A stretch of 64,000 nucleotides of DNA from a virus (lineage: Duplodnaviria; Caudoviricetes): IMG/VR virus record IMGVR_UViG_3300034127_000005, positions 34,293 to 98,292 of that record; one strand, given 5' to 3'. This document shows, piece by piece, positions 1,541 through 60,713 of this stretch (its first letter is position 1; every line of letters starts with the position of its first letter). A model generated the notes under the pieces. That model was not told the DNA's origin. It did no database searches and worked only from the letters and a program-made list of their open reading frames with translations. The translations under genes and the position numbers were made by a program.

Positions 1541-2992
1541 ATGACTGAACTAATTGAAAAAGCAGAAACTCCTTTGCCTCGTTTGCGTCTTGGTGAAATG
1601 GGTACAACTGGCCTTAAGATGGCTGGTGGTCGCATTAACGAAGAAGCTCGCAGAGAACTACGGTTCCCTGAAGCTTGCAAGACTTTCCGAACGATGGCTT
1701 CGGATGTAACAATCGCTGCTGCTCTCTCTCTGTTCAAGATGATGATCAGCCGCGTTGAATGGGATGTTGACTTGGGTGCTGAACCAGATGCTGCCATGAA
1801 AGCTCGTGGACAGTTTCTGACAGAATGTCTTGATGACATGGAGCACACATGGCGATCCTTCATTCAAGAATCTACATCTGCACTGACATACGGCTTCTCT
1901 GTTCATGAGAAAGTCTACCGCCGTCGTGATCCATCGACAGGCTCTAAATACAGTGATGGTAAGATTGGCATCAAGAAGCTCCCTATTCGCTCACAGGACA
2001 CGATCTACAAGTGGCTGTACAGTGAGGACGGTCGTAACCTTCTAGGCGTCCAGCAAAGCCTCACGATGATTCAAGGGGCAGAACGCTACCTGAATCTGAA
2101 TGCACTAACAAGCACAGGCATGATTGACATTCCTCGTAAGAAGTTCCTGCTGGTCCGTGTGGACGCTGAACGTGACAACCCGGAAGGCAACTCACCACTT
2201 CGTGCTGCATATTACGCTTGGAAGTATCGCTGCCTGATTGAAGAGCAAGAATCGATTGGTGTTAGCCGAGACATGGTTGGTATGCCAACTTTGTACTTGC
2301 CTCCACGTTATATGTCTGCGGATGCAAGTCCAGCAGAAGCCAAGATTTATCAATACTACCAGAACGTCATCCGAAACATTCAGATGAACGAACAAGCTGG
2401 TTTAATCCTGCCACAACAATTTGACCCTGAAAGCCGACAGCCATTGTTCAAGTTTGAACTGACTTCGACACAGGGTGCCAAGATGTACGATACAGACGCA
2501 ATCATCAAACGTTGGGATAACAAAATCCTAACTGCATTGTTTGCTGACGTACTGAAACTTGGACAAGATAGTGTTGGTAGTTTCTCCCTTGCTGGTGCAA
2601 AAACAAACATTATGGCAATGGCGATTGAAGCACGTCTTCAAGAAATCGCTGATGTTGTTAACAAAGACCTTATCCCGCAACTGTTCGCATTGAATGGTGA
2701 AGCCGCTGATGCCAAGCTACCTAAGCTTTGCTATGGTGATCTGGATGAAGTTGACCTTGATGAATTCTCCAAAGCAATCCAACGTATGGGTTCTGTTGGT
2801 GCTCTTGAACTTGACCGTCCTATGGCGAACAAGATTCGTAAAGCTCTTAAAGTTCCTGTCAAACCTGATGATGCTCCGATTGATAAAGAAGAGATTATGG
2901 GTGGTGAGTCTCAAGCTGGTCTAGCCGGTGTTGGGAATGGTGCTTCGAAGAAAGTCTCAGGTAAAGACAACGCTGCTGCCAACAACGCATAA
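1541..2992 (+). CDS. Portal protein
   Basis: 483 aa directly after terminase; YGFSVHEK, NPEGNSPLRAAY and GSFSLA motifs typical of Mu gp29-like portals. Confidence 0.9.
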   Translation: MTELIEKAETPLPRLRLGEMGTTGLKMAGGRINEEARRELRFPEACKTFRTMASDVTIAAALSLFKMMISRVEWDVDLGAEPDAAMKARGQFLTECLDDMEHTWRSFIQESTSALTYGFSVHEKVYRRRDPSTGSKYSDGKIGIKKLPIRSQDTIYKWLYSEDGRNLLGVQQSLTMIQGAERYLNLNALTSTGMIDIPRKKFLLVRVDAERDNPEGNSPLRAAYYAWKYRCLIEEQESIGVSRDMVGMPTLYLPPRYMSADASPAEAKIYQYYQNVIRNIQMNEQAGLILPQQFDPESRQPLFKFELTSTQGAKMYDTDAIIKRWDNKILTALFADVLKLGQDSVGSFSLAGAKTNIMAMAIEARLQEIADVVNKDLIPQLFALNGEAADAKLPKLCYGDLDEVDLDEFSKAIQRMGSVGALELDRPMANKIRKALKVPVKPDDAPIDKEEIMGGESQAGLAGVGNGASKKVSGKDNAAANNA

Positions 2993-7234: not shown

Positions 7235-7806
7235 ACATTTATAAAGACCTTGAAGACAGCCTCTACAATGTAATCATCGAGCTGTTCCCTACAAGCAGAA
7301 TCATCTTCGCTTACAACAACATTCCAGAGCCTCAGACTCCGTATATCGTGATTGATGTTAAGCGGCTTGACCAGCTTGGGAGTGAATACAGTTCCACCTT
7401 CGTGGACATAGCCTCTGACGATGCACAGACGCCTACAACCTACATGAGCATCGATATGATGGCTAAGGTTAGGTTCGAGGTTGTAGGGCTCATGGACAAC
7501 GACACAGCGGCTGCTGAGCTTGCTCAGAACATCCAACTTGCACTACGAACTGCCCGTGGGTATGAGAGTCAAGCAAGAAACAATCTGGCCCGTCACGGAC
7601 AGATCACAAATCGCCGTATGCCTTATCGTAAGGACACGGACATGTACATGCTCTACCAAGTGGATGCAAACTTCGCATACACAGCAACTTCTCAAGATGG
7701 ACAAGATTACATCCTCACAACAGACTTCAATGGCGTCTACCACGATGCTAACCGTCCTCCTGATTATGTCCTTGAGTCTCATGTTGAAATTAACCCAAAT
7801 CCATAA
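7231..7806 (+). CDS. Tail terminator/completion protein
   Basis: Directly upstream of sheath; PQTPYIVI motif. Confidence 0.55.
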   Translation: MNIYKDLEDSLYNVIIELFPTSRIIFAYNNIPEPQTPYIVIDVKRLDQLGSEYSSTFVDIASDDAQTPTTYMSIDMMAKVRFEVVGLMDNDTAAAELAQNIQLALRTARGYESQARNNLARHGQITNRRMPYRKDTDMYMLYQVDANFAYTATSQDGQDYILTTDFNGVYHDANRPPDYVLESHVEINPNP

Positions 7807-39255: not shown

Positions 39256-39803
39256 TGAATCAGCCGTGGATTGAATATCCTCATATCTGGAAGACTGAAG
39301 CGGCGTTCTTAAGCTTTGTTCGAGGGGGCATTCGCCGTGCCCTTTGGAACAAGAGCCCCATTAAGTTGGAGTTCTTGAAAGCTAATCGGAAACGGGTGAA
39401 GAATCCAGTTGCCAAGAATGCCGTAAGGTTCCCAGAAGTTTGGGGTGGTACGTGCTACCAATGTAAGAAAGATTTCGCACTAAAAGATATTGAGGTGGAT
39501 CACCTCACAGGAGAATACTCACTACGCAAGCTGGAAGACCTCCAGTCGTTTGTAGAGGGTATTGCGTGCGTGTCTGCAAAAGACCTCGGACTAATCTGCA
39601 AACCTTGCCACAAGGCTAAGACATACGCTGAACGTAGTGGTATGAGCCACGAAGACGCAATCATTGAGAAACAAGCGATTGTTATCTGTAAACTTCCTGT
39701 AAAAGAAGTGAGAACGTTTATCAGTGAGAATGGTATCGCCCCCGCCAGCACGGCTAAAGGCCGCAGAGCACAAATCGTAGACATTTTGAAAAGGAGTATT
39801 TAA
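39255..39803 (+). CDS. HNH endonuclease
   Basis: CYQC..EVDH..LICKPCHKAKT. Confidence 0.8.
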   Translation: MNQPWIEYPHIWKTEAAFLSFVRGGIRRALWNKSPIKLEFLKANRKRVKNPVAKNAVRFPEVWGGTCYQCKKDFALKDIEVDHLTGEYSLRKLEDLQSFVEGIACVSAKDLGLICKPCHKAKTYAERSGMSHEDAIIEKQAIVICKLPVKEVRTFISENGIAPASTAKGRRAQIVDILKRSI

Positions 39804-41581: not shown

Positions 41582-42138
41582 GACCAACTAAAGAGCAACT
41601 GATGAGCATGCCTAACGGTACAGCGGTTCGTGTCCTCTCCGACATGCTGAACAAGTATGAAGAGGGAGACATCATCTTCCGACTGAAAAATCCCGAGGAT
41701 GATTACGATTCGTGTAAATTTACTAATGAGTTTGGAGTGGAAAACTTCATGCAGGCTCAGGAAGTCGAGCTGATCGAAGAGCATCGTGTCTGTGGCACTA
41801 TCGCACGGCCTGTACTTGAAGAGCGTAAGGTTGGCAAGATCGCAATCGAACTTTTTGATGAAGGCTTCCCGAATGCTGTAATGGCTATCGGTGAAGTGAT
41901 GACATGGGCTGCCGAGAACAAAGGCTACAAACCTCATGACTGGAAGAACCTTCCAAACCCTGATACTGCCTTCCTCGCTGCTGGCTCTCGACACCGCATG
42001 AAGCGTCACATTCAACGTGCCGATGGTGTCAATCATATTGATTGTGTAGACGAAGAGTCCAACCTGTTGCACTTGGCACACGAAGCCTTCAATGTGTTGG
42101 CTCAGCTTGAGCTGGTAATCACAAATCGTATTCAATAA
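41578..42138 (+). CDS. dATP/dGTP diphosphohydrolase domain protein (DUF5664-like)
   Basis: VMTWAA..KGY..DWK..AAGSRH..DEESNLLHLAH motif. Confidence 0.7.
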   Translation: MRPTKEQLMSMPNGTAVRVLSDMLNKYEEGDIIFRLKNPEDDYDSCKFTNEFGVENFMQAQEVELIEEHRVCGTIARPVLEERKVGKIAIELFDEGFPNAVMAIGEVMTWAAENKGYKPHDWKNLPNPDTAFLAAGSRHRMKRHIQRADGVNHIDCVDEESNLLHLAHEAFNVLAQLELVITNRIQ

Positions 42139-58911: not shown

Positions 58912-58936
58912 AAAGCCCCGCCTGTCGGGGCTTTTT
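58912..58936 (+). terminator. Intrinsic terminator
   Basis: AAAGCCCCG-CCTGT-CGGGGCTTT-TT. Confidence 0.85.
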
Positions 58937-59033
58937 CATTCCTGTAAAATAATTTGAAAATTCTCTTGACATGTTGATTCACGGTGCTAGTCTCTTAATC
59001 AAGCAAGGGGCAAACGCCGCTGCTTAGACAAGA

Positions 59034-59049
59034 TGTTCCACGTGGAACG
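59034..59049. promoter_or_regulatory. parS: parS-like palindrome
   Basis: TGTTCCACGTGGAACG matches TGTTNCACGTGNAACA at all but the last position. Confidence 0.7.
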
Positions 59050-59069
59050 TCAACCCTAGGAGAAATGCC

Positions 59070-60530
59070 ATGTTCGCTATGAATTCCGAATCTCTCCCTA
59101 CTCCACTCGCTTCGATTGACACTCTGTTGAAAGAAGCTGATAGCAGTGTACGCCCTGAAAAGGTGTTCATTGGTCACAACCTCGGGCATCGGACCTTTAT
59201 TGCCCTGATTCCAATGAAAGACTTCTATGCAATGTCGAAGGTAGCCAACGAGCGGCAAGCTGATGGAACGCCAGCAACACAGCGCCCATTGAATGAGGCA
59301 CACGCGACCGGACTGGCAAAGTATATCCTTCGGGGCATGATTGCCGCTGCTATCGAGTATCGCCGCAACTTCAATAAGCCTGAGTCGCTGGCATTACACG
59401 AGCTACAGCGTGTAATGGGACCACAGACCTACATGTCATTGCAACCCATCGTAGCCAACCTTCGCACTGTTGAACCGGGCGGCGCTGGTATCGAAGGCAA
59501 GCGAATGGAAGCGGACGGTGAGACGGCATGCTTTAAGGTGTTTTTGGGCCAGCGTGACATGCTGTACGTTATCGACGGCCAGCACAGACGCTATGCCATG
59601 GACCTTGTGTTCGAGTTCCTGACTGAAATCAGGTTGAACCGGAAATATCCACGCAAGCCCAAACTGTTCGAAGGTAATTTCAAGGAGCCAATTGCTACCG
59701 ACGTGCTCGCCGCATGGGACGAATGTGACGAAGTGGCACGGGGCTTTAGCAAAATCGCTGTAGAAATCCACCTCGGGCTTGGCGTCCGTGAAGAGCAACA
59801 ACTATTCCACGACTTGAACAATCTCGCCAAGAAGGTAGAACGGTCGCTCGCTTTGAAGTTCGATAGCGCCAACCCGGTTAACCAGTTCATCCAGAACGAA
59901 CTGTTACCACATATCCTAGATTGGGATGATGTAGCAGACGGGGACCAAGCCAACTGGACAAAGGACACTGGCCGTTGGACTTTCCGCGACTTGGCAGCAA
60001 CTAACGCTATCCTGTTCTTGAACAAAACGAGCATTGCCAGTGCTACGCCCGCTGATGTAGAAGAGAAACATGCTACAGCTTGCAGGATGTGGGGCGCTAT
60101 CGCAAACGTTCCTCACTTCGGCAAGCCGGGGGCAAAGGCAAACACGGTGCTAGCACAGCCTGTAGTCGTCAAGGCCATTGCAAAGCTCGTGTATGATCTG
60201 GGCTATGGTCGTCGTCGTGATGCCAGCGCTCAAGAAGATTTGGAACGCCTGCTGATGTCTCTGAGTCAAGTCAATTTCAGCCACACTAACCCGGTCTGGC
60301 GCTTCTATGAAATGACAGAACAGGAACGCATTAAAGCGAAGTTGAACGGCTTACGTGACTATCTGCCCGATGGTGGCGACACTAACAGAAGCATCGGCAC
60401 CTTCGACAATCAAAATAAATGGATGCGCTTTGCCACTCGACATAACGACATTTACCCGATCATTGGGGACATGATCCGCTGGATGCTCAAGCTACCATCC
60501 CGCACCGCTGAAAAGGTAGACGCTGCATAA
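59070..60530 (+). CDS. DGQHR-domain/DndB-family protein (ParB/Srx-like fold)
   Basis: TQRPLNEAHA..LAKYI, LYVIDGQHRRYA, EQQLFHDLN motifs; promoter TTGACA-N16-TAGTCT (58966-58993); SD aggag. Confidence 0.8.
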   Translation: MFAMNSESLPTPLASIDTLLKEADSSVRPEKVFIGHNLGHRTFIALIPMKDFYAMSKVANERQADGTPATQRPLNEAHATGLAKYILRGMIAAAIEYRRNFNKPESLALHELQRVMGPQTYMSLQPIVANLRTVEPGGAGIEGKRMEADGETACFKVFLGQRDMLYVIDGQHRRYAMDLVFEFLTEIRLNRKYPRKPKLFEGNFKEPIATDVLAAWDECDEVARGFSKIAVEIHLGLGVREEQQLFHDLNNLAKKVERSLALKFDSANPVNQFIQNELLPHILDWDDVADGDQANWTKDTGRWTFRDLAATNAILFLNKTSIASATPADVEEKHATACRMWGAIANVPHFGKPGAKANTVLAQPVVVKAIAKLVYDLGYGRRRDASAQEDLERLLMSLSQVNFSHTNPVWRFYEMTEQERIKAKLNGLRDYLPDGGDTNRSIGTFDNQNKWMRFATRHNDIYPIIGDMIRWMLKLPSRTAEKVDAA

Positions 60531-60543
60531 CTGCAAACCCTTC

Positions 60544-60570
60544 GCCCCGCCTAACAAGCGGGGCTTTTCT
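60544..60570 (+). terminator. Intrinsic terminator
   Basis: GCCCCGC-CTAACAA-GCGGGGC-TTTT. Confidence 0.85.
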
Positions 60571-60614: not shown

Positions 60615-60713
60615 ATGACACCTACAGAGAAAGTTTTCCTTGCTATATTGACAATCATGTTTATTGCGTGGTTTGTGTCTGTCTCAATTCTTTTTCAGTT
60701 GACCTTAAAATAA
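60615..60713 (+). CDS. Small single-TM peptide (32 aa)
   Basis: Not in ORF track; MTPTEKVFLAILTIMFIAWFVSVSILFQLTLK. Confidence 0.45.
   Translation: MTPTEKVFLAILTIMFIAWFVSVSILFQLTLK

Follow-up and report, generated by a model that had tools for sequence, protein, structure and literature searches.

Host-type parS sites in a terminal, apparently early region of virulent-looking Pseudomonas phages: probable docking sites for host ParB

Why should a phage carry a bacterial centromere site in the leader of one of its genes, and which protein would read it there? The question is raised by IMG/VR virus record IMGVR_UViG_3300034127_000005, a complete genome of 98,292 bp whose right-hand 64 kb form the stretch of DNA analyzed here (the window). 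A preliminary description of the window had pointed to a palindrome of chromosomal parS type in the leader of a DndB-like gene, which encodes a 486-residue protein with the DGQHR motif, and had offered three roles for it: loading of host ParB on early phage DNA, control of the gene by ParB, or reading of the site by the phage protein itself. We find that parS sites are present in this phage and its relatives, that they are identical to host sites and far more frequent than chance allows, and that they are retained amid diverged flanks and restricted to one zone of the genome. Our preferred reading, to which we give a probability of about 0.62, is that selection maintains them as places where host ParB docks, a use already reported for Bacillus phage phi29.

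We asked how closely the palindrome matches the chromosomal site, and how often such a match would arise by chance. As had been described, the core, TGTTCCACGTGGAACG, is one base away from a Pseudomonas parS: it equals TGTTCCACGTGGAACA at 15 of 16 positions and differs in the last base. TGTTCCACGTGGAACA is the sequence of P. aeruginosa parS2/3, and parS1/4 end in C at this same position (PMC4368675). The window site conforms to the 16-bp parS palindrome pattern tGTTnCACGTGnAACa and is the only match at one mismatch or fewer in the window, where simple arithmetic predicts about 7e-4. When up to three mismatches are allowed there is a single further match, a look-alike with three mismatches (TGTTGCACTTGGCACA; Table 1), which we attribute to chance because 0.32 matches are expected per shuffled window. 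The half-site GTTCCAC is not enriched (13 seen vs 9.6 expected). In the complete 6.1-Mb chromosome of P. antarctica we found six parS at one mismatch or fewer, all within about 100 kb and four of them inside 4.6 kb; roughly 16 kb separate the cluster from the only parB gene, and its variants (..ACATGG.., GGTT.., ..AACC) are those of the phages. The phage sites are thus identical to chromosomal sites of Pseudomonas (P. aeruginosa, P. antarctica), the genus that the relatives of the window phage infect. The match in sequence, its excess over chance and its retention while the flanks diverge together bear out the description of the palindrome as a chromosome-type parS.

The leader site is not the only copy. 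Its earlier description as the single full copy holds for the window; the genome has a second parS, TGTTTCACGTGGAACA, which the window does not include. It lies beyond the record junction, about 5.4 kb from the DndB-like gene in the downstream direction; at the junction the record's two ends share some 190 bp. This second copy sits in a stretch of about 700 nt that is poor in open reading frames (ORFs), has many ATGCAT and GTGTGC motifs and ends in a bidirectional-looking terminator at about 2290-2320. The relatives of this phage are Pseudomonas phages of about 96-107 kb, several of them classified as Otagovirus (these relatives are VCM, M5.1, REC, Psxphi15, Ep020, Pyxpy01/02, UAVern, ventosus, Kremar, Roomu-2, NoPa and SYP), with P. 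syringae, P. putida and P. plecoglossicida as hosts; Roomu-2 and NoPa are P. putida phages. When 16-mers at one mismatch or fewer were counted across 11 whole genomes, there were two sites in our genome, one in Pyxpy02, four each in UAVern and ventosus, two distinct ones in M5.1, five in Ep020, three in Roomu-2, five distinct ones in SYP (four by the strict consensus, and one more with positions 5/12 left free) and none in VCM, Psxphi15 or Kremar. A reversed-pattern control gave no match in any of the 11. About 0.016 sites per 100 kb would be expected by arithmetic, against one to five per site-bearing genome.

The same pattern extends to the relatives' regions as a set, 12 of 17 of which hold sites (one to five per region) and five of which hold none; relatives from IMG/VR resemble the cultured ones in this respect. 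When the early regions are aligned on the DndB-like gene, all 34 of their sites fall between -0.6 and +7.4 kb from it, in a block of small early-type genes, about 7-8 kb long, that reaches the genome end, and a copy at UAVern 43120 is the single parS outside that zone. M5.1 (MZ826350.1) and SYP (OQ183418.1) each have a parS within their direct terminal repeat, of 547 bp and 351 bp respectively, 42-124 bp from the right terminus, implying that their virion DNA has one at each end. By analogy, the second parS of our genome may lie near the physical genome end; at the nucleotide level, the M5.1 and SYP repeats match our genome only at the parS itself and a few bases next to it. In UAVern (locus L002) an additional half-site-like sequence, GGTTCCAC, lies 10 nt 5' of a perfect leader parS. 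The sites are therefore a polymorphic array across the lineage, the window site being one of two in its genome.

Is the 16-mer itself under selection? Eleven core positions (2-4, 6-8, 10-11 and 13-15) are the same in every one of the 34 sites and only positions 1, 5, 9, 12 and 16 vary, whereas the 30-nt flanks have no mutual resemblance. Because the core is invariant while the flanks are unrelated, we conclude that selection acts on the 16-mer. The variation at positions 5/12 is informative about the form in which the site is read. It is found in either orientation with respect to the direction of transcription, giving U.G in RNA at six sites and C.A at seven, and this strand symmetry favors recognition of duplex DNA. 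Sequence comparison thus points to sites read as duplex DNA rather than RNA.

An alternative is that these palindromes are RNA hairpins in the 5' or 3' untranslated regions (UTRs) of early mRNAs, with roles in stability, processing or translation control, and that their identity with parS is incidental. Most sites are transcribed, consistent with this idea: 11 of the 34 start 0-3 nt past a stop codon, at least nine precede a terminator hairpin, and others occupy leaders. The window copy can also fold as an 8-bp hairpin (-11.4 kcal/mol, z -4.0). However, no compensatory change occurs in the 34 sites, whose stem is invariant rather than covarying, and the loop ACGT is kept in 32 of them; at seven sites the sense-strand stem would contain a C.A mismatch, and relatives do not keep the extended stem of the window copy. 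Several sites, moreover, are located past a terminator or in the terminal region where ORFs are scarce, and the model would leave unexplained why many copies match the host centromere exactly, at 16/16 positions. We therefore consider an RNA role highly improbable.

If the sites are read as DNA, what reads them? The phage is virulent-looking, and its complete genome gives no match to the integrase family PF00589. Nor is there any match in the complete genome to ParB_N (PF02195) or to CbiA-type ParA (PF01656), PF13614-type ParA not having been searched for, and tblastn with Pseudomonas ParB finds nothing in the phage genome. With neither a ParB nor a ParA match in the phage, host ParB is the likeliest reader. 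The first of the three proposed roles, host ParB loading on early DNA, is the best fit: selection keeps a host-type parS in a genome that matches neither ParB_N nor CbiA-type ParA. The earlier remark that parA and dndCDE are missing is borne out for CbiA-type ParA and for the DndC type (no PAPS_reduct match in the genome); PF13614, DndD and DndE were not searched.

Sites of this kind are not peculiar to these phages. In viral contigs (IMG/VR loci L009-L127) there are 120 occurrences of the 14-nt parS core, 55 of them with the full T...A flanks where about 6% would be expected, and eight loci hold two to four sites. Neither a DndB-like protein nor any relative of ParB is encoded in the 119 other viral stretches that have a parS core, implying that orphan host-type parS are common in viral contigs independently of the DndB-like protein. 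On these sequence counts, orphan host-type parS look widespread in such contigs.

The position of the window site raises the possibility that the DndB-like protein itself reads the palindrome, autoregulating from the leader and binding the other phage sites as well as the origin-proximal parS of the host, where it might compete or co-assemble with host ParB and so disturb host segregation or mark phage DNA. Of the 13 genomes with sites, 11 have one abutting the gene, and Pyxpy01/02 have no other. There is also a precedent in Salmonella DndB, which controls its own expression through sequence-specific binding to TACG-N10-CGTA palindromes in its promoter (PMC4507180). When the relatives are compared, however, the slot beside the gene shifts or is empty. 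The parS is in the leader in eight cases (the window, UAVern, where it is perfect, ventosus, Ep020, and loci L154, L156, L157 and L160); elsewhere it follows the stop codon of the gene, at +1 in M5.1, REC and SYP, at +7 in Roomu-2 and NoPa, and at +38 or +50 in the Pyxpy phages and L154. In L155 and L159 the sites are solely 3-4 kb from the gene, and other sites lie 1-7 kb off beside other genes. Three phages, VCM, Psxphi15 and Kremar, keep the gene without any parS. In a tree of the protein, leader parS are scattered, with losses within their clade.

Frequent adjacency is also what the layout of the zone in UAVern would predict. From the coordinates of UAVern we calculate that the two flanks of the DndB-like gene hold about 24% of the zone's non-coding DNA, and the terminal region about 56%; the three UAVern sites in the zone fall one and two in these compartments, as available space predicts, and flanks making up about a quarter would alone predict frequent adjacency. 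Outside the lineage the gene is found without the site: no parS occurs within 8 kb of nine loci encoding four bacterial homologues (about 50% identity), none accompanies the remoter homologues from viruses (identities of 49%, 34% and about 25%), and the 119 parS-bearing viral stretches described above do without this protein. The bacterial homologues stand alone, one beside dnaA-dnaN-gyrB, with an unannotated 579-residue gene coming next, one beside a tyrosine integrase and one beside toxin-antitoxin genes (coordinates include L145 8001-9509, on a 632-kb bacterial contig, and L150 6650-8122), contexts that suggest a self-contained, mobile function. The leader is thus one of several interchangeable non-coding slots, along with the gap between stop codon and terminator and the terminal non-coding region. 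There is no conserved regulatory coupling between parS and the DndB-like gene, and the two do not appear to be functionally tied. The proposed specific link between site and gene is not supported by this evidence, and the co-occurrence check that had been suggested showed adjacency in most site-bearing genomes alongside a variable slot and three site-free phages. Control of the gene by ParB is possible for this phage only, since the arrangement is not conserved.

Does the protein look like something that could bind parS? It matches PF14072 (DndB) with 108 bits (cut-off 29.1) and TIGR03187 (DGQHR) with 65 bits (cut-off 58.85), confirming it as the DGQHR protein first described, and DGQHRR is unchanged in 31 homologues. 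Against the DndB equivalog model TIGR03233 it scores 34.4 bits, the cut-off for DndB proper being 328. PHROGs assigns it to phrog_36010, a family of unknown function, PADLOC gives a weak DndB match (37.8 bits) and the ESM Atlas returned only DndB-family clusters. In an AlphaFold2 model (predicted local distance difference test 78.7, predicted template-modeling score 0.66), the N-terminal half (about residues 38-258) resembles ParB/Srx folds, with Z scores of 7.5 for SspE, 6.8 for PadC, 6.6 for DndI, 5.8 for KorB and 4.8 for sulfiredoxin. These modeled scores are middling, although the top matches belong to one fold class, that of ParB-type nucleoside triphosphate (NTP)-binding domains. The C-terminal half (259-480) is helical, and its only structural matches are generic helical repeats (Z at most 4.6), with no known DNA-binding domain among them. 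Foldseek against the PDB gave no match to the model at E at or below 0.001, and a PDB sequence search gave nothing at E at or below 1. The protein has no Pfam ParB_N match at E at or below 0.1, and its similarity to Pseudomonas ParB is not meaningful (BLASTP E 0.042, spanning just 34 residues); neither a helix-turn-helix of the ParB type nor a C-terminal dimerization domain was recognized in it. The earlier attribution of a ParB-like fold is supported for the N-terminal half, by a structural resemblance of middling score, and finds no counterpart in a ParB_N match or a helix-turn-helix.

Several identities for the gene were considered and set aside. As a ParB partition protein it would lack ParB_N, a helix-turn-helix and any partner ParA that we could find; as DndB proper, regulator of a dnd operon, it falls short by its equivalog score, with no DndC-type match in the genome (DndD and DndE not searched). 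DpdB of 7-deazaguanine DNA modification was rejected because the complete genome has no DpdA/TGT-family transglycosylase partner (no PF01702 match). JSS1_004 (PMC12345140) is a kinase and unrelated. A link between parS and the Dnd motif, through the GAAC/GTTC within parS (motif as given in PMC4507180), was taken as coincidence because no dnd genes were found and the entire 16-mer is conserved. The gene is an orphan DGQHR gene. The evidence for its product reading the palindrome consists of the ParB-like fold of the N-terminal half, adjacency and the Salmonella precedent, and we judge such a reader unlikely; the third proposed role, which had adjacency and palindrome binding by Salmonella DndB (PMC4507180) in its favor, is not upheld. 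It is somewhat more doubtful still that the DGQHR protein is a phage modulator of the host centromere, either as a ParB-fold nucleoside triphosphatase (NTPase) reading parS or as a protein joining or displacing host ParB. Were this so, control by the phage would extend to the host's origin-proximal partition complexes as well as to the parS-marked early part of its own DNA.

A further explanation is that another early phage protein, or a host factor other than ParB, binds the sites, or that they are neutral remnants of recombination with DNA from the host origin region. All neighboring early genes are unassigned in function, the presence of sites is polymorphic, and alleles are swapped between close relatives, all of which such an explanation could accommodate. 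Neutral copies, however, would decay and would bring host flanks with them; instead, nothing but the 16-mer is kept, amid phage-specific flanks with no relation to one another. The tolerated variants are those of a Pseudomonas chromosome, and a second factor with exactly the specificity of ParB would be unparsimonious. We regard both forms of this explanation as improbable.

The anatomy of the cassette around the window site is summarized in Table 1, with the other sites mentioned. Both flanking terminators were recovered as hairpins (z -4.0 and -3.8), in agreement with the stand-alone cassette first described, and the palindrome has the sequence and the position, between promoter and Shine-Dalgarno sequence, that had been reported. 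The upstream terminator is kept in relatives. The promoter, whose activity is predicted from sequence, has TTGAC and CTA.TCT unchanged across nine aligned phages. The parS core ends 8 nt 5' of the ribosome-binding site, around which TAGGAGA is identical in nine phages and unpaired in the predicted leader fold. A small ORF follows the closing terminator; in L154 the start of the same ORF comes after the downstream parS. Cumulative GC skew tracks the direction of transcription and marks no origin, and no DnaA box was found in the terminal non-coding region.

Table 1. Coordinates of the DndB-like cassette and of the other sites discussed
Feature	Sequence	Position	Strand	Details
Intrinsic terminator of upstream early gene	Window	58913-58940	+	GCCCCG-loop-CGGGGC, then T run; -16.6 kcal/mol, z -3.97
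Predicted sigma-70-type early promoter	Window	58966-58993	+	TTGACA 58966-58971, 16-nt spacer, extended -10 TGcTAGTCT 58985-58993
Palindrome GATGTTCCAC/GTGGAACGTC	Window	59032-59051		Between promoter and ribosome-binding site
Host-type parS core TGTTCCACGTGGAACG	Window	59034-59049	none	About +34 to +49 of predicted transcript
Ribosome-binding site AGGAG	Window	59058-59062	+	7 nt before ATG at 59070
DndB-family/DGQHR-domain ORF	Window	59070-60530	+	486 residues, carries DGQHRR
Terminator closing cassette	Window	60544-60570	+	Hairpin 60544-60564, then T run; -15.5 kcal/mol, z -3.8
32-residue ORF past the closing terminator	Window	60615-60713		Hydrophobic, single-transmembrane-like, MTPTEKVFLAILTIMFIAWFVSVSILFQLTLK
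parS look-alike TGTTGCACTTGGCACA	Window	42065-42080		Three mismatches
Second parS TGTTTCACGTGGAACA	Own genome (G000)	2111-2126		Outside window
Terminal-repeat parS	M5.1	408-423 and 98397-98412		547-bp direct terminal repeat
Terminal-repeat parS	SYP	294-309 and 107116-107131		351-bp direct terminal repeat
Half-site-like GGTTCCAC	UAVern	about 1600-1618		5' of leader parS
Stop-adjacent parS	UAVern	1019-1034
Stop-adjacent parS	ventosus	39671-39686
Stop-adjacent parS	M5.1	93205-93220
Stop-adjacent parS	SYP	7655-7670 and 963-978
Stop-adjacent parS	Ep020	72021-72036

How might docking of host ParB work, and what could the phage gain? Host ParB would recognize the 16-mer and presumably close on it as a CTP (cytidine triphosphate)-dependent clamp; it could then spread over the flanking early, terminal phage DNA, and a partition complex of the host would thereby form at that end of the phage genome. 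Binding of ParB at the phage sites, and every effect downstream of it, we infer from the sites themselves. The most plausible pay-off, by analogy with phi29, would be positioning or inheritance of unintegrated genomes, driven by ParA/ParB, in slow-growing hosts; titration of ParB, loading of SMC, protection of the DNA end or damping of early transcription are alternatives. In this particular phage, bound ParB could also hinder transcription or translation of the DndB-like gene incidentally.

A number of observations weigh against docking of host ParB. The terms early and first injected, as applied to this region, are based solely on the kind of promoter, the genes present and the terminal location. 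The start of 11 of 34 sites within 0-3 nt of a stop codon, and the arrangement of stop codon, parS and terminator hairpin in at least nine, amount to a preference for transcribed UTRs that a purely DNA-level role does not predict; it may simply be where a compact early region accommodates 16 additional bases. The abutment of gene and site in 11 of 13 site-bearing genomes also keeps a link to the gene conceivable. Finally, the clade of VCM, Psxphi15 and Kremar has the DndB-like gene at 86% identity and no parS genome-wide, and the leader allele is exchanged by local mosaic recombination. The site-free clade and the swaps between parS+ and parS- alleles imply that the sites are dispensable for lytic growth. 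The alleles can be seen in near-identical DndB-like proteins with parS+ or parS- leaders (L156/L160 vs L158/L155; 9790-10010 in these loci, 58990-59060 in the window).

The proposed docking of host ParB on a phage that lacks ParB has a documented precedent. The virulent Bacillus phage phi29 is reported to carry five host parS sites (Meijer et al. 2005, as reviewed in PMC2731898), and the same review reports that Spo0J/ParB helps the phi29 genome to segregate into the prespore, leading to its entrapment in the spore. The principle of host parS on a virulent phage without ParB is thus already known from phi29, and the phages described here are like it in being virulent, in having no ParB of their own and in carrying several copies of the host chromosomal parS. 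They differ in that the host is Gram-negative and non-sporulating, so that the pay-off cannot be spore entrapment, and in that the sites, here known from sequence alone, lie in one terminal early region, within the terminal repeat in two relatives, and number zero to five per region. Compared with the chromosomal ParABS system of Pseudomonas, the phages share the same 16 bp, the same variants at the end position and the clustering of several sites within a few kilobases (PMC4368675), whereas their sites are about 50-100 times as dense as chromosomal ones and have neither adjacent parAB nor oriC.

The DndB-like protein likewise has known relations. It shares Pfam family PF14072 and the DGQHR motif with DndB; it differs in its equivalog score (34 vs 328 bits), in being about 130 residues longer than the equivalog model (355 positions) and in that the palindrome beside its gene is parS rather than TACG-N10-CGTA. 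Its N-terminal half is like the ParB/Srx-fold NTPases (ParB, KorB, PadC, SspE, DndI and DUF262/GmrS; Z 5-7.5), from which it differs in having no Foldseek match at the threshold used, no ParB_N match and no recognized helix-turn-helix or dimerization domain. We see it as a separate question: a strongly conserved family, with about 50% identity between phage and bacterial members and no known partner.

Our literature searches turned up no account of host-type parS for these phages or for any other virulent phage of Gram-negative hosts, Otagovirus papers not having been searched for parS; phi29, in a spore-former, is the only experimentally studied case that we found. To that case the present phages add restriction of the sites to one zone, a location in the terminal repeat, natural polymorphism for presence and absence, and cultured pairs of phage and host. 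The lineage also supplies natural controls, in close relatives with zero, one or five sites and in parS+ and parS- leader alleles of near-identical genomes. If our reading is right, a group of virulent Pseudomonas phages of about 98 kb, including P. syringae biocontrol candidates and phages of P. putida KT2440, puts the segregation machinery of its host on the early end of its DNA. A Gram-negative case with tractable hosts would open the questions of whether ParB is recruited for inheritance in a carrier state, for positioning of the DNA, for loading of SMC, for titration of ParB or for evasion of host defenses.

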